Assembly (NCBI GenBank): GCA_008080735.1
Contig: SHMW01000100.1
Location: 1 to 13,236 of the forward strand
Direction of reading: 5' to 3'
DNA from: Promethearchaeota archaeon
GTDB lineage: Archaea > Asgardarchaeota > Lokiarchaeia > Sigyniarchaeales > SOKP01
Length of the DNA: 13,236 nt
The translations under genes and the position numbers were made by a program. The notes beneath the pieces were generated by a model, which saw only the letters and a list, made by a program, of their open reading frames with translations, did no database searches and was not told the origin of the DNA. Below are positions 528 through 12,999 of this stretch, piece after piece. Each line of letters begins with the position of its first letter. Position 1 is the first letter of the stretch.

Positions 528-2006
528 ATGCTTCGACAAACCCATATCCTTTATTCTGGTAAACGAGTGTTTACTCATACATTTGCGATGGCCCTAAGAG
601 ATGAAGATCTAAAAAATGTGATCGGAGCCTTACAGCCACAGATCAATATGCCTATTCCTGGCAAAATCCTTCATCGACCTATTTCTGAACAACAAGTTTT
701 CCATTGCGGCTATGGGGATTTTTATTTTCTCATGGTTGCTGATATGGTGGATTCAATTAAATATATGGAAGAAATTCTTGAAAAAGCAATAAAAAAATTT
801 AAAGAATTATTTCCTGACATAGGTACACTGCAGAATTCTGATTCCAAACGAAAACACTTTATCGATTTTTTATATAAGCTTCAAGCAGAATTACATTCAA
901 AAATAGCAATAATAGGGCCAACCAACGCGGGAAAGACCACCTTATATGAAATGCTAACCAATAAAAAAGAAGAACGAAGCATAATGAATTTTGCAAAAGC
1001 TTCTCTACTAAATCTCTATGATTTACAGTTTGATGTGTGGGATTTCCAATTAAAAGATAATTTCTCACTCTTGTGGTCGAAATTTGTAAGCGGATCTGAT
1101 CTTGTCATTTTCATATTCGATGCCTCTAAATATAATTTGAAAGTACTTGATCAATTTCTCACTCTTAAAAGAAAAGAAAGTCAACTTTCCAAATTCATTA
1201 TCATTGCCAATAAAATTGATTTAATTGATGATGAGACTATTGAAAAAATTGAAAATGAATTAGAAATAGAGAACATTGAAAAATTATCTTTAGAGGATTC
1301 AAAGGCAAAACAAACCATACTTGAACTAATTAGTAAAGCACTTCAACTTAAGAAAAAGTTGCCTAACAATTTCGATGATTTAAGAGCTGAAGCTGAAAAT
1401 CTTTATGAAGAAAAGAATTTGGGGAAAGCTTTGGCAAAGTATAAAGAATTGATAAATATCTCAAATTCATATCAACATTTTGAATATTTAAAAGAATTTA
1501 AAGAGACAGCGAAGCAAATAGAAAATAGAATTCAAGAGCGAGCGGAGATTCGCAGAAAAATTCAGAGGAAAAAGAAATTTGCCCCACCCCAAAAAATTAA
1601 GTTCACTAAAAAAATTCAAGTGAAAGACCTTCCAAAAAATCATATTTCGTCAAAAACAATTGAAGCTGAAAATCATAAAGAGCACAAAGACAATTCTACC
1701 CAGAAAAGAAGACTTCGACCGTCAGATGTAAAGATAGATTTAAAATTTAATAATAACCCAGACTTAAAAAAGGAAGAAAGTCAACCCAAGAAACCGCATC
1801 CTGAAGAGAACTATGAAAGTATTGACGATGTTGAAGATATCCCCCAGTTATTGCATGATATGATTAAAAGTAGAGGAAGTCAGCTTAGTTTAAAATTGTG
1901 TATCCAATATATTAACGAGATGGAATCATCTCTTAAAAGAGAGCTTAATCTGGAAGATTTAAAAACTGCCGCAGATTATTTCATCAAGCAAGAAATTTCA
2001 AGATAA
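528..2006 (+). CDS. Multidomain Ras-superfamily (Arf/Rab-like) GTPase: N-terminal longin-like domain, G domain, MIT/TPR-like helices, basic/low-complexity linker, small C-terminal helical domain
   Basis: G1 GPTNAGKTT (915-941), G3-position WDFQL (1038-1052), LVIFIFDAS strand, G4 NKID (1209-1220). The first ~120 aa show the longin-type beta-beta-alpha-beta-beta-beta-alpha-alpha pattern. Helical segment FDDLRAEAENLYEEKNLGKALAKYKELI resembles MIT/TPR. Confidence 0.85.
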   Translation: MLRQTHILYSGKRVFTHTFAMALRDEDLKNVIGALQPQINMPIPGKILHRPISEQQVFHCGYGDFYFLMVADMVDSIKYMEEILEKAIKKFKELFPDIGTLQNSDSKRKHFIDFLYKLQAELHSKIAIIGPTNAGKTTLYEMLTNKKEERSIMNFAKASLLNLYDLQFDVWDFQLKDNFSLLWSKFVSGSDLVIFIFDASKYNLKVLDQFLTLKRKESQLSKFIIIANKIDLIDDETIEKIENELEIENIEKLSLEDSKAKQTILELISKALQLKKKLPNNFDDLRAEAENLYEEKNLGKALAKYKELINISNSYQHFEYLKEFKETAKQIENRIQERAEIRRKIQRKKKFAPPQKIKFTKKIQVKDLPKNHISSKTIEAENHKEHKDNSTQKRRLRPSDVKIDLKFNNNPDLKKEESQPKKPHPEENYESIDDVEDIPQLLHDMIKSRGSQLSLKLCIQYINEMESSLKRELNLEDLKTAADYFIKQEISR

Positions 2007-2899: not shown

Positions 2900-4393
2900 A
2901 TGTCGCAAATTAAAGAACTCATAATTCATTTTTCGAAACTTAAACAGCTGAAATACATAAACAATCTTTTAAATTGGGACCTTCAAGTTTATATGCCCGA
3001 TGGCTCAAATAAGGGACGCGCTGAATTAATCTCTCTGGTTGGAGAATTGGTTCATAAAAAGTTAATATCAAATAAAACTGAAACCTTAATTTCGGAAGCG
3101 GAACAAAAAAAAGATTTAAGTCTAATCGATGCGGCTATTCTTAGAGAAGCTAAAAGGGAATATCAAAAAGCGATAAAGATCCCCACAGATTTAGTAGTAG
3201 AGATCGCAAAAAATGCCTCCTTAGGTCATAAGGCTTGGGAGAAAGCGCGAAAAAAAAGTGACTTTTCTATTTTTAGACCATACCTTACAAAAATGATTGA
3301 TCTTCAAAAGCAATACGCTGACCTGATTAATATCGGAGAGAATCGATATGATTCCTTATTGGATGATTATGAACCTGGCGCAACTAAGAAATGGCTTTCC
3401 TCGCTTTTTAATAACCTTGCTCCCCAGCTACAGACTATTTTAAAAAAATTGGAAACTTCAGGGGAAGAGCCAGATTCATCCATACTAGAAAATGTATATG
3501 ATGCAAAAAAACAATGGGAATTTTCCAATAGTGTGATTGAAAAGCTTGGATTTGATTTTTCTATAGGAAGGCAAGATAAATCTGTCCACCCATTCACCAC
3601 TGCCGTAGCTTCTGAAGATGTGAGAATAACCACACGGATTATTGAAAACTTTTTGCCGGCAGGATTATTTGGTACGATTCATGAATGCGGACATGCGCTA
3701 TATGATATGGGGTTTATGGAGGAAATTCACGGCACTAATTTAGCAGACGGAAGTTCTTTGGGAATACACGAATCGCAATCACGCATGTATGAAAATTTTG
3801 TTGGGAGAAGTAAGGAATTTTGGAAGTATTGGTATCCACGATTAAAGAATCTTTTTCCTGAAAATTTAGGAGATGTTGCTCTGAATCACTTTTATAAGGC
3901 GATAAATACCGTGAAACCTTCATTGATAAGGGTCGAGGCTGATGAAATCACCTATTCTTTGCATATAATATTACGTTTTGAAATAGAATCCTTGATTTTT
4001 GAAGATCTAATAGAAGTGGAAGAATTGCCTCAAGTCTGGGATGAAAAAATGACTGAATTACTTAATATAACACCTCCAAATGATGCGAAAGGAATTCTAC
4101 AAGATGTCCACTGGTCTGGAGGGGCGTTTGGGTATTTTCCTACTTATACGCTTGGGAATCTCTATGCCGCTCAGATTTACAATGACGCTTTAACTAAAAA
4201 TCCAAATATGCCTTTTGAGTTTACTTCAGGAAATTTTAATACCCTTTTACAATATCTAAGAGAGAATGTCCATCAATATGGGAGTATATTTCATCCCCGG
4301 GATCTTATTCATAAGATTACGGGAGAAGCCTTAAACCCAGAGTATTTCATAACCTATTTGGAGGAGAAATTTTATCCAATTTATAGAGTATAA
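2900..4393 (+). CDS. Metallocarboxypeptidase, family M32 (carboxypeptidase Taq/PfuCP-like)
   Basis: HECGH (HEXXH), HPF, DVRITT, HESQS, IRVEADE, QDVHWS, GYFPTYTLG. Length ~500 aa is typical of the family. Confidence 0.97.
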   Translation: MSQIKELIIHFSKLKQLKYINNLLNWDLQVYMPDGSNKGRAELISLVGELVHKKLISNKTETLISEAEQKKDLSLIDAAILREAKREYQKAIKIPTDLVVEIAKNASLGHKAWEKARKKSDFSIFRPYLTKMIDLQKQYADLINIGENRYDSLLDDYEPGATKKWLSSLFNNLAPQLQTILKKLETSGEEPDSSILENVYDAKKQWEFSNSVIEKLGFDFSIGRQDKSVHPFTTAVASEDVRITTRIIENFLPAGLFGTIHECGHALYDMGFMEEIHGTNLADGSSLGIHESQSRMYENFVGRSKEFWKYWYPRLKNLFPENLGDVALNHFYKAINTVKPSLIRVEADEITYSLHIILRFEIESLIFEDLIEVEELPQVWDEKMTELLNITPPNDAKGILQDVHWSGGAFGYFPTYTLGNLYAAQIYNDALTKNPNMPFEFTSGNFNTLLQYLRENVHQYGSIFHPRDLIHKITGEALNPEYFITYLEEKFYPIYRV

Positions 4394-6118: not shown

Positions 6119-6757
6119 GTGATAAGTGTGACTGCCCTTGAAAGTGTTAAAAAAGTCAATATTATTTGTCCCTATTGTAAGCATAATTTCCAAAAGGACA
6201 TAGAGGGAGGCAATAATTCAACAAAACTGTTATCAATCCTCATAAAAGACCATCCGAATAGTCAAGATTGCGGTCCTTTTATTGCATTTATCGATAAAAA
6301 TGGTTCTCATCGCGGCTCTCAAAAGATTGACAATGTGGATGAGGTCGATTCGGAAAAAAGTAAGGTGATCGAGGACGCGAGGAGCCGAATTGAAGAGATG
6401 GATGATAAACTACGATTTTATCATCTTAAAATTCCCCCAGAAAAGGGAAGGGCATTCGATCATAAAGTAGCTAAAGTAAGCGATCGTTCTTTTATGAGCA
6501 GTGCGTTCTATATGTATCTTATACAATATTTATTGAATTGCGAAGCTGAAAGCACTTTTGGTATGATTTGCTTGAATGATCATAAGGATCTTGATGGAAT
6601 TTTGGTGTATGGTAAATATTTAGGAATCCTCTATACGATGTATTGGAAGGATCAAATCTCCATTAAGCAAAAATCCTGGGATGATCTCAAAGGATATACG
6701 AATCTAGCAGTAGAAAAGCTGCTAGACTTTTACGATTTAATCGATTTATTATTTTAA
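6119..6757 (+). CDS. Hypothetical protein with an N-terminal Zn-finger-like motif and a C-terminal alpha/beta domain (possibly longin/roadblock-like)
   Basis: CPYC...H..SQDC...FIDKNGSHRG at the N-terminus, a helical linker, then a mixed alpha/beta domain. GTG start at 6119 (alternative GTG at 6128). Confidence 0.75.
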   Translation: MISVTALESVKKVNIICPYCKHNFQKDIEGGNNSTKLLSILIKDHPNSQDCGPFIAFIDKNGSHRGSQKIDNVDEVDSEKSKVIEDARSRIEEMDDKLRFYHLKIPPEKGRAFDHKVAKVSDRSFMSSAFYMYLIQYLLNCEAESTFGMICLNDHKDLDGILVYGKYLGILYTMYWKDQISIKQKSWDDLKGYTNLAVEKLLDFYDLIDLLF

Positions 6758-6833: not shown

Positions 6834-7895
6834 ATGGTTGATTCGATTGATTATCCAATTATTGATGATATTGGAAGTATCCCCCTTCCCGCGTATGCCA
6901 GGGAAGAAGATTTCAAAGAGATGTATTGGGATCTTTACAAAGCGGTAATCAGCGGAGCTAACTGGGATGAACTTATGCTCCATCGAGGATTTAAGTCCAC
7001 AATTATTCGACCTATAATCGATTCTTTTCAACTTAAAATTAACTGCGGTATCGAAATTCCCACATATTCAAGACATTGGGATATGCATACTCCATTTCTT
7101 TTTCCAATAGAAAATTACGCCATCCAGCCATACCATATTGACAATACGAAAGCAAGAATAATAGAGGTCGACATACTAAGAGAATATGCAAAACATCATT
7201 TTGAGGAGACAGGCATAAAGACTCAATGCAGAGTGAGTGTGACGGGTGCGCTGGAATTATATTTGAAATTAAAAGGATTTGCAGTTTATAAGGACATCGC
7301 TCTCAATTTAGCGCGAAGTATAAACTCGTTCTTTAAGAAAGCAATTTATTCTGATAGATATTTTGAAACTCCTGTAATAGCTATCGATGAGCCTTCAATA
7401 GGGATTATTACTTTTAATCTTATATCAGATGATGATATTGTAGATATATTGGAAAAAGAATCATCAGGATTAAATCAGGAAATTCAAATACATCTACATT
7501 CACTTGCCAAAAGCGAAATTGCCTTAAATTGTAAGAACATTGATGTGTTGACTTGTGAATACGCCAGTAGAACCGATCAGAAAATCCCTAAAAAGATATT
7601 AGAGAAATACGATAAGTTTATGCGAGTTGGCATAACGCGCACCAATATTTCAAATTTAATAGCCGACCAAATTGAGGTCGGTATTCCTCCAAAACACTTC
7701 GCAAACGACGAGGGACTTATCTCTATTATAGACTCAAAAAATAGAATAAAAAAAAGATATAAAGAAGCGATAAAATATTATGGGGATAGATTAAGATATG
7801 TGGGTCCGGATTGTGGACTGATTGGATGGCAGAGTCATAAGGTTGTCTCAGCATTATTGAGTAGAACTGTTTCTGCTGTTAAAGAATTGAGATAA
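6834..7895 (+). CDS. mesC: Single-barrel (core MetE-like) folate-independent methionine synthase, MesC-type
   Basis: DDIGSIPLP, IDEPSIG, IQIHLHS (His-x-His at the MetE His-x-Cys Zn site), CEYA, RVGITRTNI, VGPDCGL. 353 aa is half the length of MetE. The motif set matches my recollection of Methanosarcinales-type MesC, so the subfamily is less certain than the fold. Confidence 0.8.
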   Translation: MVDSIDYPIIDDIGSIPLPAYAREEDFKEMYWDLYKAVISGANWDELMLHRGFKSTIIRPIIDSFQLKINCGIEIPTYSRHWDMHTPFLFPIENYAIQPYHIDNTKARIIEVDILREYAKHHFEETGIKTQCRVSVTGALELYLKLKGFAVYKDIALNLARSINSFFKKAIYSDRYFETPVIAIDEPSIGIITFNLISDDDIVDILEKESSGLNQEIQIHLHSLAKSEIALNCKNIDVLTCEYASRTDQKIPKKILEKYDKFMRVGITRTNISNLIADQIEVGIPPKHFANDEGLISIIDSKNRIKKRYKEAIKYYGDRLRYVGPDCGLIGWQSHKVVSALLSRTVSAVKELR

Positions 7896-7977: not shown

Positions 7978-8005
7978 TAATTAAAAGTAATAATTTTAGA
8001 GCAAG

Positions 8006-9199
8006 TTAGAGATTTTCCACTATAGTTGCTTCTGAAACGCCACCGCCACCACACAGTGTAGCAAGTCCGTAAGATACATCTCGCTTCTTCATTTCGTGGA
8101 TAAGTGTAACGATTATTCTCGCTCCTGTGCATCCTACGGGGTGTCCTAAGCCTATTCCAGAGCCATTGACGTTTGTTTTTTCAAAGTCCCAACCTAATTG
8201 CTTTCCTACAGCGACATACTGTGCTGCGAAAGCTTCATTACATTCTACCAGTCCGAGATCTACATATTTCATATTAGCTTGTTTAAGTGCTAATGGGGCG
8301 CTATACATGGGCCCCATTCCCATATATTTCGGGTCATTACCGATTTTACTTATCGTGACGATTTTAACAAGCGGGTCTAACCCAAGCTCTTCCGCTTTTG
8401 CTTGCGTTGTTAGCAATGTCATGCATGCTCCGTCATTAATCCCTGATGAATTACCAGCGGTTACAGTTCCATCTTTTTTAAAGACAGGAGGTAATTTTTG
8501 GAGTGCTTCCATAGTTAAACCTTCCCGGAAGTGCTCATCTTTATCAAAAGTGTAGGTTTTCTTTCTAGTTTTGACTTCTACTGGGATGATCTCATCTTTA
8601 AAACGTCCCGATTTTGTAGCTTCTTCCGCATTATTCTGCGAATCAAGCGCGGCTTTATCTTGCTCTTCTCTCGATATATTGTATTTATCTGCAACATATT
8701 CTGCGGTCATGCCCATAATATATCCTTCTCCAAATACTTTACTTCCAGCGTGGAGTCCTTCCATTATTCCACATTTCATCTCTTTATTACGTAAACGTGC
8801 ACCCCAACGAGCAGAAGGGATGTAATAACTCACATTACTCATACTTTCTGTCCCTCCCGCCAACACGACCTCTGCCTGGTTCGTCATTAAGTCGACCATG
8901 CCAGCTCTCACAGCTTCCATCGCAGAAGTGCATACTCGATTAATCGTCATAGCAGGAACTTCATAAGGAATATCTGCAAGAAGCGCTGCAACACGCGTCA
9001 CATTCATTTCTTCTTGCGGCTCCATACAACATCCCGCTTTAATATCAGAAATGACCGATGGATCAATACCCGTCTCTTCAATGCAATCTTTAATACAATA
9101 ACTCAGCAGTTTACTTGCATTATACGGAAGCAACGAGCCGCCAAAAGTACCGATGGCGGTTCTTTTTGCATAACAAATTACGATATCATTATCTCCCAT
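8006..9199 (-). CDS. atoB: Acetyl-CoA C-acetyltransferase (classical thiolase)
   Basis: RTAIGTFGG, TINRVCTS (nucleophile Cys), AGGTESMS, GTVTAGNSSGINDGA, NEAFAAQ, GHPVG, LCGGGG. ATG at 9199 preferred over the GTG at 9211, which lies within an SD-like GAGTGA. Confidence 0.95.
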   Translation of the reverse strand: MGDNDIVICYAKRTAIGTFGGSLLPYNASKLLSYCIKDCIEETGIDPSVISDIKAGCCMEPQEEMNVTRVAALLADIPYEVPAMTINRVCTSAMEAVRAGMVDLMTNQAEVVLAGGTESMSNVSYYIPSARWGARLRNKEMKCGIMEGLHAGSKVFGEGYIMGMTAEYVADKYNISREEQDKAALDSQNNAEEATKSGRFKDEIIPVEVKTRKKTYTFDKDEHFREGLTMEALQKLPPVFKKDGTVTAGNSSGINDGACMTLLTTQAKAEELGLDPLVKIVTISKIGNDPKYMGMGPMYSAPLALKQANMKYVDLGLVECNEAFAAQYVAVGKQLGWDFEKTNVNGSGIGLGHPVGCTGARIIVTLIHEMKKRDVSYGLATLCGGGGVSEATIVENL

Positions 9200-9389
9200 G
9201 TTAGTTTTCACTCATAAATTTAGTTATTAGTGGTTAAGAAAATAATCGATAAACAAAAAACATTTCTCTTGGGTTGATATGCATTACTTTTCATGATTAT
9301 CGAAATCCTACACTAATCTTAAGAACCATGATTGATTTCTACAAAGCTGTCAAACCTTAAATACAATCTACGATTATTATCTTCACAAA

Positions 9390-9397
9390 TTTATAAA
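9390..9397 (+). promoter_or_regulatory. Putative TATA box (TTTATAAA) for the DOMON-like gene
   Basis: Consensus box 22 nt before the in-frame TTG at 9419, consistent with a leaderless or very short-leader transcript. Confidence 0.45.
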
Positions 9398-9418
9398 AAA
9401 CTACGGGGTTTTACAATT

Positions 9419-10126
9419 TTGACAAATAAAAAATTAATTGGTGGATTTCTTGCGGTCTTTTTAGTCGCTGGGGTTGCTGGAGGGTTTGCCGGTTATTATT
9501 TTCCGCGATTAGATTTCGGCTCATTTAATCCAACGATAGATGGAAATTTTAGTACTTCAGATGGATGGCGGTTCGCAAAATGGCAATTTATAGAATATCT
9601 TACTTTAGATGAGAATTCGACTAATACAAACAATTACTTCTACGTACATTTAACAGATGAATACTTATATGTGCTAATTGATTTTTGTGGAGATACTACG
9701 GGCGATAAAAAGGGAGAGTGGTTAACCATATGGATAGATACAGATAATTCTCAAACGACTTATTCACATACTGGAAAAGGAGGTGGGATGTTGTGTTATT
9801 TAACCGAGAATAGCTCGTATAATGAAACATTTCATCATAATGGAAATTTGTTTGAGACAAATTTAAATAGTTCTAAGGTTAATTTAGGATTTAGTTTCCA
9901 ATCAACAGTTAATTCTAAAATTGAACATCGTGTATTCGAATTAAGAATAGATTCAAGTATATTTGAAGATGATTCTCAAAATGATTTCGCTATTGCTTTT
10001 TTAGGATATGGGACTGCTTTTGTTCCATATTATAATTCTGGATTTTGGGGTGCTCCTTCCAATTTTGCTCAAGAATATAGTATTTCAAATAATATATATG
10101 AAAATCTTTATTTTATATGTGAATAG
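9419..10126 (+). CDS. Membrane-anchored or secreted protein with a DOMON/CBM9-like beta-sandwich domain
   Basis: From TTG 9419: basic n-region (TNKK) and hydrophobic segment LIGGFLAVFLVAGVAGGFAGYYF, then PTIDG..W, YLYVLID, LTIWIDTDN, VFELRI, which are typical of DOMON-like/CBM9 domains. Asn/Ser/Thr-rich with many N-x-S/T sequons. The ORF-track start at 9332 is probably too early. Confidence 0.7.
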   Translation: MTNKKLIGGFLAVFLVAGVAGGFAGYYFPRLDFGSFNPTIDGNFSTSDGWRFAKWQFIEYLTLDENSTNTNNYFYVHLTDEYLYVLIDFCGDTTGDKKGEWLTIWIDTDNSQTTYSHTGKGGGMLCYLTENSSYNETFHHNGNLFETNLNSSKVNLGFSFQSTVNSKIEHRVFELRIDSSIFEDDSQNDFAIAFLGYGTAFVPYYNSGFWGAPSNFAQEYSISNNIYENLYFICE

Positions 10127-10161: not shown

Positions 10162-10170
10162 TTTTTTTTT
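10162..10170 (+). terminator. Putative archaeal oligo-T terminator
   Basis: T9 run about 35 nt after the stop at 10126. Confidence 0.55.
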
Positions 10171-10204: not shown

Positions 10205-10220
10205 AAAAGATTTTAAATAA
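10205..10220 (+). promoter_or_regulatory. Putative BRE+TATA promoter for the GTPase/coiled-coil pair
   Basis: Purine-rich AAAAGA directly followed by TTTTAAATAA, between the T9 run and ATG 10274. Confidence 0.4.
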
Positions 10221-10273: not shown

Positions 10274-11278
10274 ATGGCTGATGTATATAATGAGATCAAT
10301 CTCAAATTAGTTTTTTTGGGCAGTGGAGGGGTTGGCAAGACTTCCTTAGTAAATGCGCTAACGGGTAAAGTAGTACCAGATCGATATATGCCCACTATTG
10401 GGTCCACAATTAACAAGAAAGAATATTTATTGGAGGATTCGAATTATTTAGTCTCAGTAAATTTATGGGATATCGGAGGTCAGAGAAGTTTCAATCCGCT
10501 TAATCCTGTATTTTTTAGTAATGTTGACATCGCGTTTCTAATTTACGATATAACTAAACCCCAAGAAACAATTGCCGAACTTAATGAGATTTATTTGCCC
10601 AATCTCCTACAAAATACAGGAGAATGTTTAATATTTATTTTAGGTAATAAAATTGATTTGGAGTTTGAAAAAAAAGCGATTAAAGATATTCTAAAGCAAG
10701 AAAGATTTGATAAATATCCTAATATACTCGTCTCTGCTTTACATCAGGAGAATATTGAAGCTGCCGTGGAATATGCCACATACAACTATTTCATTGAAAT
10801 GAGTGAAGAGCTGAAGGAAAATAATGTTAAGATCAATGCTGAAAAGCTTCTGGATGTGTATGGAAAATCCAAAGTAGAGTTGGAAAAGATATTAATTAAT
10901 CTTGAAGATATTAGCTCCATGAAAATTCAGAAAAAGGCACCCGTAAAAGTATCTAAGAAAAAGCTCGAGAATACAGAGATGGAGTTGGAGAGATATCGTT
11001 TAATCCAAGAAAGATTAGAGGATTTAGAAACAATAAAAGAGCAAATTCGAGCATCATTTCGCAATAATTTAATCACAATTGAAGATATGATCCAAGAACT
11101 AAAAACGACACCAATAAGTTCGTTGATTAAAAACATTAACAAAACTCTTACTCAACTGGATTATCTAAAAGGCGATTTTGAACTCAAACTTAATTCATTA
11201 CTCAATATGGATAAATTAGCCAAACAAAAGGAGCCTCCATTATCATTAAAATCTACTACAGAATCGGAGGGAAACTGA
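10274..11278 (+). CDS. Rab-like small GTPase with a C-terminal coiled-coil/helical-hairpin extension
   Basis: Complete motif set: G1 GSGGVGKTS, G2 YMPTIG, G3 WDIGGQ, G4 GNKID, G5 VSAL. Followed by ~160 aa of helical, heptad-rich tail. No CAAX/CC motif. Confidence 0.92.
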   Translation: MADVYNEINLKLVFLGSGGVGKTSLVNALTGKVVPDRYMPTIGSTINKKEYLLEDSNYLVSVNLWDIGGQRSFNPLNPVFFSNVDIAFLIYDITKPQETIAELNEIYLPNLLQNTGECLIFILGNKIDLEFEKKAIKDILKQERFDKYPNILVSALHQENIEAAVEYATYNYFIEMSEELKENNVKINAEKLLDVYGKSKVELEKILINLEDISSMKIQKKAPVKVSKKKLENTEMELERYRLIQERLEDLETIKEQIRASFRNNLITIEDMIQELKTTPISSLIKNINKTLTQLDYLKGDFELKLNSLLNMDKLAKQKEPPLSLKSTTESEGN

Positions 11279-11284
11279 TTTAAA

Positions 11285-11839
11285 ATGCCTAAAAAGGAAA
11301 AAGAAGAAATCGTTTCATTAGCTGAATTTAAAAAATTAAATGTCAAAGTCAAGGATCTTAAAAAACTTATCAACTTAAACAACGAGAAACATAAGGAAAT
11401 CACGGATTCGATTAAACAACAAATTACAGCGCTAGATAAGAAAATCGATAGGACAAATGAGCAGATTGAAGCGCAAATTAAAACTCAAGAAGAAATCATT
11501 ATGGATATGATTCATAAATTTAATGAAGAATTTCTGAAAAATAAGAGCGCTCTCATGGCAAAGATCGATGATATTAAATCGCAACAAGATGTTCTCAAAA
11601 TTTCTTACAGTATCAATGAAAAAAAGTTATTAGATAAAGTCAAAGGGTTAATCCATGAAGAAATGAAAAAATGTGTTCAAGATAATGAAAAAGAGATATT
11701 GATGGACATTTGGATACGCGAATTGAAAAATATTATAAATGACATAGAACAACTAAAAAAAATGGATCCAAAAGAGTTTGCCCTACAAATTGACGAAATT
11801 TCCGCCACTATTGATCTCTTTAAGCAAAAACTCAAATAA
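11285..11839 (+). CDS. All-helical coiled-coil protein, probably co-transcribed with the upstream GTPase
   Basis: Begins 6 nt after the GTPase stop, with GGAGG at 11266-11270. K/E/I/L-rich heptad pattern throughout and almost no Gly/Pro. Confidence 0.85.
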   Translation: MPKKEKEEIVSLAEFKKLNVKVKDLKKLINLNNEKHKEITDSIKQQITALDKKIDRTNEQIEAQIKTQEEIIMDMIHKFNEEFLKNKSALMAKIDDIKSQQDVLKISYSINEKKLLDKVKGLIHEEMKKCVQDNEKEILMDIWIRELKNIINDIEQLKKMDPKEFALQIDEISATIDLFKQKLK

Positions 11840-11856: not shown

Positions 11857-12999
11857 CTAATCTCGGAGTTTTGGTGGTGGGACAAATACTTTTCTTGCTC
11901 CTTCAATGAGGGATATCGCCGATTCTGGGCAAAAGTGTGCGCATATACCGCATCCGATACACCATTCTGGATTTCTTTCTGCTTTGTTGTTCTCGTTGAG
12001 CTCAATTGCATCAACCGGACATTCTTCGACACATGTACCGCATCCGATGCAGATCTCCTGGTCAATATCTGAAAGAAAATTAGTAGCATTTATCATCGGT
12101 AAAATCCCTTGCTTCCAAAGATTAAATGTTCCACAGCAATCTTTGCAGCAATTGCACACACTTGTCTCATCCCGATCTATTTTTCCGTGGGGATGATAGG
12201 CTTTATGGACCAATCCCGCTTCTTCTGATTTCTGCAAAATCTCCAGAGCCTCTTCTTTTGAAATTTTCCTTCCAAATCCTTGTTCTGCAACAAAACGCGC
12301 CGATTTCCCGAATGTGAAACAATTTTCCCTCATATCAGTGACTTCACATGAATTTCCGAGGAGATCTTGATGTTGTCGGCAAAAACAGTGAGCGACAGTG
12401 ATATCATCGAATTTGTTTATTATATCTTCGATGTTATCGGCTGTTAACACATTCTCTTCGGGTGCTTCTACCTCTTGATCAACTTTGATGGTGATTTCTT
12501 CTCCCTCTATATTTTCATGAAAAGGGACAGTGCGATCTATAGGAGGTATTTTCTTGAATCCAGGGAGGAACATATCATACCGTTCTTGAACAATATCCTC
12601 AAGCTCGTCGAAAAGTTCATCGAACAATTTTGCCATTTTCTTTTCCTTTTCGGTATATTCCACTTTGCGCATGAACACATATTCAAAAATTCCCACCATT
12701 ATTAAAGGCAAAAGACGATACACTCTTACTCCTTTTGAGTTTGGTTGATCGAATAAAGCACCTTTTTTTGCCAGAGAAGTTACATGTCGCAATATTTCCT
12801 CTTCTGGGAGTTCCGTGGTGGATTTGAGTTGGTCTAGAGTTTGAGAAACGCGTCTTTTAAATGCCTTGATAATAAATTCTGCCTCCTCTTCCGTATAAAG
12901 GAGTTTTACGATTTCTAAGAGAGTGTCCGTTATCGGAAATGGAAGCATTCCAGCTTTTACAATTATTTGAGCTGCTTTTTTGTATTGTTTTTCTGACAT
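11857..12999 (-). CDS. Multi-Fe-S protein: N-terminal wHTH-like region, central Cys-rich domain, C-terminal 2x[4Fe-4S] ferredoxin
   Basis: CFCRQ..C..C and CNCCKDCCG central motifs, CIGCGTCVEECP and CIGCGICAHFCP ferredoxin motifs. TLDQLKSTTELPEEEILRHVTSLAKKGAL resembles a wHTH. Confidence 0.88.
   Translation of the reverse strand: MSEKQYKKAAQIIVKAGMLPFPITDTLLEIVKLLYTEEEAEFIIKAFKRRVSQTLDQLKSTTELPEEEILRHVTSLAKKGALFDQPNSKGVRVYRLLPLIMVGIFEYVFMRKVEYTEKEKKMAKLFDELFDELEDIVQERYDMFLPGFKKIPPIDRTVPFHENIEGEEITIKVDQEVEAPEENVLTADNIEDIINKFDDITVAHCFCRQHQDLLGNSCEVTDMRENCFTFGKSARFVAEQGFGRKISKEEALEILQKSEEAGLVHKAYHPHGKIDRDETSVCNCCKDCCGTFNLWKQGILPMINATNFLSDIDQEICIGCGTCVEECPVDAIELNENNKAERNPEWCIGCGICAHFCPESAISLIEGARKVFVPPPKLRD

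Follow-up and report, generated by a model that had tools for sequence, protein, structure and literature searches.

A conserved gene pair encoding a Rab-like GTPase and a candidate helical partner in one family of Lokiarchaeia-type Asgard archaea

The window (the whole 13,236-nucleotide stretch of DNA that was analysed; G+C of ~31%) contains two neighboring open reading frames on the plus strand, gene A (10274-11278; 334 aa) and gene B (11285-11839; 184 aa). The ORF coordinates bear out the 6-nt gap between them reported in the first-pass annotation, and at this spacing the two genes are probably co-transcribed. The features of the locus, and the evidence by which each was delimited, are as follows:

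10162-10170, plus strand: run of nine T residues 3' of the upstream gene (stop at 10126), read from the sequence; candidate archaeal oligo-T terminator
10212-10219, plus strand: TATA-box-like octamer TTTAAATA, with purine-rich CAAAAG just before it, 55 nt 5' of the start codon of A
10274-10798, plus strand: gene A, G domain (residues 1-175); Pfam, TIGR00231, PDB sequence and fold matches, alignment
10799-10975, plus strand: gene A, linker (residues 176-234); in the AF2 model, short helices at residues 177-204 followed by a low-confidence basic stretch
10922-10954, plus strand: basic stretch KKAPVKVSKKK within the linker (residues 217-227); low confidence in the AF2 model
10976-11224, plus strand: gene A, C-terminal helical hairpin; AF2 (helix 235-278, TTP turn, helix 281-317) and alignments
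11225-11278, plus strand: gene A, C-terminal end and stop codon; variable, disordered and free of Cys
11279-11284, plus strand: 6-nt spacer from the stop codon of A to the ATG of B, with GGAGG within the final codons of A; read from the sequence
11285-11455, plus strand: gene B, variable N-terminal part (residues 1-57); alignment, AF2, conservation profile
11456-11839, plus strand: gene B, conserved C-terminal domain (residues 58-184) and stop codon; alignment, AF2, profile
11857-12999, minus strand: convergent gene for a 380-aa protein with a 4Fe-4S ferredoxin domain

The T9 run, the TATA-like site and the convergent downstream gene had all been proposed as boundaries of a two-gene module, and all three are located as claimed, but the octamer is no more common than chance would make it (7 occurrences in the window versus 6.7 expected), so that only its position argues for a promoter. 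The T9 run may be a terminator bounding the module on its 5' side. On the 3' side the module is bounded by the ferredoxin-domain gene, which ends at 11857 and occupies the same position in several genera, though not in all. Elsewhere in the window, the minus-strand thiolase gene (8006-9211) stands out by its base composition (G+C of 0.43 at 8001-9000, versus ~0.31-0.36 in the rest of the window). Three plus-strand ORFs (6119-6757, 6834-7895 and 9332-10126; 212, 353 and 264 aa, respectively) had no Pfam match at E <= 0.001 and are missing from the corresponding interval of the related loci examined.

By profile and motif criteria, gene A encodes a Ras-superfamily small GTPase, predicted to be switch-competent. 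Residues 11-167 matched the Pfam families Ras (E = 1.6e-21) and Roc (E = 1e-20), Arf was also matched, and TIGR00231 was recovered at E = 4e-16; the scores of PF00071 (77 bits; cut-off of 21.6) and TIGR00231 (59 bits; cut-off of 42.5) both exceeded their thresholds. [quoted passage not shown] In the PDB, the best matches by sequence and by fold alike were Rab7/Ypt7, with a Thorarchaeota Rab also matched: the G domain aligned over ~160 residues to Rab7 (E = 7e-19) and to Thor-Rab (PDB 7EZB; E = 1e-14), and Foldseek matched it to the Rab7/Ypt7 and Thor-Rab fold at E of about 1e-11. A fold search of the Atlas with the A model returned generic GTPases alone. Septin identity was considered and rejected, there being no match to a Septin-type G domain profile among Pfam hits at E up to 1.

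Strict membership of the Rab family is defined by the motifs RabF1 to RabF5. When A was aligned with Rab7, RabF5 alone proved well kept (LIYDIT versus LVFDVT), RabF1-F4 being partial (IGSTI for IGADF, SVNLW for TMQIW and FFSNV for FYRGA). The tail of A (ending ...TESEGN) has no Cys that could serve for prenylation and thus no prenylation site, and no such Cys was found in the tails of its homologues. Since RabF1-F4 are partial and the C-terminal Cys is lacking, A by these motifs falls outside the strict Rab family, and "Rab-like" is a fair description. The earlier reading of A as a Rab-like GTPase with a helical tail is upheld by the profiles, by Rab7/Ypt7 as nearest matches and by the hairpin of the AF2 model. 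Two kinds of motif variant were seen among the homologues. In those of genus g3 (L003:267-1265, L005:2240-3235 and L012:2240-3235) G3 reads WELGGQ, Glu replacing the near-universal Asp of DxxG in 3/3 cases. In genus g5 (L004, L006, L007, L009, L010, L011 and L015) the P-loop reads G-x-W-G-V-G-K-T (G-Y-W-N-S-G-K-T in L015), so that Trp occupies the place of Gly12 in Ras. Bulky residues at that position normally block GAP-assisted hydrolysis, and the P-loop Trp suggests altered GTPase kinetics in g5.

The AF2 model of A, built from the 26 homologues, has three parts: the G domain, a linker and an antiparallel hairpin, the last, like the helices and turn of B described below, with pLDDT in the range of ~80-96. 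Conservation extends beyond the G domain into both of the other parts. In the linker, F192, L193, K198, L203, N209 and K221 are conserved, and the hairpin carries a conserved block (F262, N265, I273, K277, I288 and D301-F302-E303) that coincides with a 41-residue segment singled out in the first-pass annotation. A search of the window's own genome for a paralogue of the A tail found none, the tail being unique there.

Gene B begins with a basic MPKKEK stretch, followed by a heptad-like helix whose length and sequence vary among homologues. In the AF2 model (pLDDT 88) the protein comprises one long helix (residues 12-157), a KMDP turn and a second helix (residues 162-183). Invariant residues are D102, I106, E135, E137, L139, W143, I150 and P162. 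Across residues 58-157, 66% of alignment columns are conserved with no 3.5-residue periodicity in the conservation, a pattern indicative of specific contacts made by several faces of the predicted helix; judged by the alignment, every helix face of the domain is under constraint, which is not how a two-stranded coiled coil with a purely structural role behaves.

Searches with B found relatives of its own kind alone. A word-index search returned 152 relatives, whose named members carry the labels Lokiarchaeota, Promethearchaeota or Hodarchaeota, every one being annotated as hypothetical, and a profile of the B domain run against 1.84 billion representatives recovered 70 clusters, all of the same kind and with the domain C-terminal in full-length matches, and no distant relatives. 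No Pfam or NCBIfam family scored above cut-off for B; the hits of B homologues to Nuf2_DHR10-like, Baculo_PEP_C and Apolipoprotein in Pfam were all below cut-off and were read as heptad noise. A profile search of the PDB yielded coiled-coil noise alone (chemoreceptors, apolipoprotein, syntaxin; E > 0.001), and a feature search of the ESM Atlas gave nothing above 0.87 and no family. Identification of B as a known coiled-coil Rab effector, GEF or tether (RILP, FIP, Sec2, golgins) was rejected, as no family profile or solved relative matched. Readings of B as ESCRT-III, SNARE or BORC-like were likewise set aside (no Snf7 or SNARE profile match and no other supporting result); for ESCRT-III, the AF2 model is moreover a single long helix, not the ESCRT-III hairpin core. 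Among proteins of 323-2000 aa neither an A-B fusion nor a longer form of B was found, which is weak evidence. In part of genus g2 (L022-L029 and L041:7634-8617) B reaches ~280-330 aa through extra N-terminal amphipathic repeats that match the Apolipoprotein profile at E = 8e-11, below cut-off; in these same genomes the hairpin turn of A has no Pro, and the A tail is 19-22% identical to that of the window.

The distribution of A and B was followed at two taxonomic levels. Gene B is single-copy and was present in 29/201 sampled genomes of the phylum, all belonging to one family, and at all 29 of these loci a homologue of A lies directly upstream on the same strand (the A tail alone at truncated contigs). 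When 81 genomes of the order were searched with one profile for the A tail and another for the B domain, both genes were found in 48, neither in 31 and A only in 2; both A-only genes sit at a contig end where B would be, and no genome (0/81) had a strong B match in the absence of A. Weak hits of the B profile in frames of 434 and 484 aa (E = 5e-5 and 6e-4) were read as noise. The 31 pair-less genomes include members of the same family as well as single-contig genomes of a sister family, and neither A nor B was found outside this family in any other genome searched. In nearly all genomes the two genes are adjacent and on the same strand. In some genera the spacing rises to ~140 nt, depending on the start codon chosen, so tight translational coupling is not universal.

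Adjacency of this kind could in principle be passive, A and B being neighbors that share no function and have stayed together by inheritance in a young lineage. The pair is limited to one family, and its shared history is accordingly short; the wider neighborhood is also partly conserved, several genera keeping the order 492-aa GTPase, M32 carboxypeptidase, A, B and ferredoxin-domain gene. Yet where the flanks have been swapped (in g4 and part of g2, for unrelated metabolic and transport genes) A and B are still adjacent, and their presence and absence coincide over the 81 genomes, including joint absence inside the family. Against passive inheritance also stand the covariation of the A hairpin with B, described below, and the disruption of both genes in one genome (L021; G129:C216:41377-44811), where A is frameshifted beyond residue ~130 and an in-frame TAG interrupts B at a position occupied by Trp in relatives; this single case may reflect joint decay or an assembly error. 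We consider passive adjacency highly improbable. The synteny check across Asgard genomes thus sides with the earlier proposal of a two-gene module, through conserved adjacency and strict co-occurrence. That A and B form a conserved pair, a lineage-restricted operon of a GTPase and its putative partner, is strongly supported by these genome comparisons, and that the two make up a functional module is very probable.

As to the wider neighborhood itself, the 492-aa protein (528-2006, plus strand) has an Arf/Roc-type G domain at residues 116-260, with N- and C-terminal extensions. Its place and that of the M32 carboxypeptidase (2900-4393) upstream of the A-B pair are kept in g1, g3, g5 and part of g2; the window itself has five further genes between these two and the pair.

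How the two proteins might work together had previously been explained by descent: the C-terminal hairpins of A and B were taken to be paralogous, the products of a duplication, and to use their common fold for heterodimerization, yielding a rod or tether that bears the GTPase. The alignment behind this proposal reproduces exactly in its details (A residues 262-302, B residues 143-183; 8/41 identities, 15 positives), both peptides being modelled by AF2 as helix, LK-x-x-P turn and helix, and conservation along the A tail peaks in the A segment. What did not stand is its significance. The BLOSUM62 score of the alignment is 17, a value that 146 of the 18,000 ungapped pairings of 41-mers from the A tail with 41-mers from B equal or exceed, with the best real pairing (score of 32) elsewhere; plain and heptad-class shuffles of B gave a mean best score of 34, all 2,000 of 2,000 reaching 17, and reversed B gave 36. 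BLASTP between the two tails returned E = 1. At the profile level, hhalign of the two families gave a probability of 0.5% (E of about 0.1) in another register (A 243-277 versus B 146-180), a score about equalled by 4 of 60 column-shuffled B profiles and by the reversed profile. Scored column by column, the register of the first-pass annotation ranks 7th of 17,856, which speaks for it, but 24% of column shuffles reach its score and registers offset by ~21 residues give similar values. Such a pattern of registers and shuffles is what heptad-like helices give. The modelled hairpins also differ in helix length (44 + 37 residues in A versus 146 + 22 in B), with the Pro one position out of line. The likeness of the two C-termini is therefore best read as a shared helix-turn-helix and heptad character; neither the shuffled coiled-coil controls nor hhalign of the tail profiles supports common descent, and paralogous hairpins are very unlikely. 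The covariation reported next would fit a contact between the A hairpin and B, not necessarily by way of B's terminal hairpin.

Pairwise divergence was compared over 45 A-B pairs, whose lineages are non-independent, so that the correlations carry no valid p-value. Divergence of the A hairpin followed that of B closely (r = 0.84-0.91), and given the G domain the partial correlation of hairpin with B was 0.63-0.78 (0.59 and 0.69 inside two subclades), versus 0.18-0.36 for the linker with B and 0.08-0.32 for the hairpin with its own linker. The hairpin of A thus tracks B better than it tracks the linker of its own protein, and this distance covariation is suggestive of a hairpin that couples A to B. 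Inter-protein mutual information over the same number of pairs (45; effective number of ~30) did not separate the hairpin from the G domain, and prediction of the full-length complex, with A and B both supplied as alignments, gave scores of 0.00, 0.48 and 0.14 in runs made without controls, which count neither for nor against binding. A physical complex of A and B is slightly favored, and a contact made through the hairpin of A is a tentative proposal, somewhat less probable than not.

The main rival to a hairpin-mediated contact is that B acts on the G domain, either as a nucleotide-state-dependent coiled-coil effector in the manner of RILP and FIP dimers or as an exchange factor like Sec2/Rabin8, leaving the hairpin of A for self-association, autoinhibition or, with the basic patch, membrane binding. 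Parallel coiled-coil dimers are known to engage the switch regions of eukaryotic Rabs, and Sec2 is itself a coiled-coil GEF. Action on the G domain would fit with the residues of switch I, switch II and the interswitch as the most invariant part of A, and with a long helix of B that is conserved on all faces and bears invariant acidic residues and a Trp; when the hairpin is controlled for, the G domain still has a partial correlation with B above zero (0.25-0.53). Nonetheless, both over the whole set and in one subclade the divergence of B is followed more closely by the hairpin than by the G domain, the A tail and B have exactly identical phyletic distributions, and B has no sequence link to any known effector or GEF family. 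Action of B on the G domain is on this evidence unlikely, although far less so than either paralogous hairpins or passive adjacency.

We favor the reading in which the operon is inherited as a unit and B is a dedicated partner docked by the hairpin of A, and as a whole we give it a probability of roughly 0.6. On this reading, A and B would form a self-contained and probably co-transcribed operon, passed on as a unit within one Lokiarchaeia-type Asgard family. A would be a Rab-like switch that carries, where eukaryotic Rabs have a prenylated tail, a conserved antiparallel hairpin on a linker that bears a basic patch, and B would be its dedicated helical partner, made up of an N-terminal coiled-coil segment of variable length and a conserved C-terminal domain of 127 residues. 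Docking of the A hairpin on the conserved C-terminal helices of B would give a stable, constitutive helical bundle, whereby the GTP/GDP switch head would be tied through the flexible basic linker to a rod whose length the N terminus of B may set. Whether GTP or GDP is bound might in turn control an additional contact made by the switch regions, to B or to some third factor. Carried to its full extent, this model describes an obligate A-B hetero-oligomer, in which a Rab-like switch is hard-wired by its own hairpin to a dedicated rod of genus-dependent N-terminal length: an archaeal equivalent, encoded in an operon, of a Rab with its tether or scaffold, whose origin would be independent of the eukaryotic effectors, and the first cognate partner of an Asgard small GTPase assignable from genome layout alone. 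We offer this extended form as speculation, with the odds clearly against its holding in full.

Asgard archaea encode very many small GTPases, hardly any of which have known partners, because the genes for regulators and effectors do not as a rule lie beside them (PMC10933270, for MK-D1). The A-B pair is an exception, a GTPase strictly co-inherited with a candidate partner, and as such is directly testable by co-expression. Its reach is limited, in that relatives of B could be detected only within a single family of uncultured Lokiarchaeia-type archaea. Confined in this way, the pair bears on how Asgard GTPases are wired and not directly on the ancestry of eukaryotic effectors, and no link runs from it to eukaryotic effector families. 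No description of the pair was found in the literature searched.

Among known systems, A shares its fold, all G motifs and the catalytic Gln with Rab7/Ypt7 and Thor-Rab (7EZB), but these are without its 160-residue linker and helical hairpin, and A in turn has the RabF motifs only in part and no C-terminal Cys. Tran et al. describe Asgard Rabs, Thor-Rab and those of MK-D1, as having no C-terminal extensions, and find that the small GTPase genes of MK-D1 are generally not in operons with regulators (PMC10933270); the A-B pair departs from both statements. Closest in presumed working are Rab7-RILP, Rab11-FIP and Sec4-Sec2/Rabin8, which likewise join a small Rab-type switch to a long alpha-helical protein. 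The genes for RILP, FIP and Sec2/Rabin8, however, lie apart from those of their GTPases, and the proteins contact the switch regions and show no sequence relation to B that could be detected, whereas A is predicted to carry its own helical docking element and forms a fixed operon with B. In layout the pair resembles Rag/Gtr and the Asgard Rag-like pairs, in which a domain C-terminal to the G domain likewise keeps a constitutive partner bound, as the hairpin of A would do, and one Rag-like pair of MK-D1 is encoded in an operon (PMC10933270). Rag/Gtr proteins, GTPases both, dimerize by a roadblock domain of alpha/beta type, in contrast to the all-helical hairpin of A and to B, which has no G domain. 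Septins and Arl13B also place a C-terminal helical segment after a GTPase head, and use it for assembly, but their class of GTPase differs from that of A, and a Septin has paralogous GTPases for partners, whereas A is paired with a protein that is no GTPase. By analogy, then, the A-B pair would work like a Rab with its coiled-coil effector while being laid out like the Rag-type GTPases, as a member of neither family.
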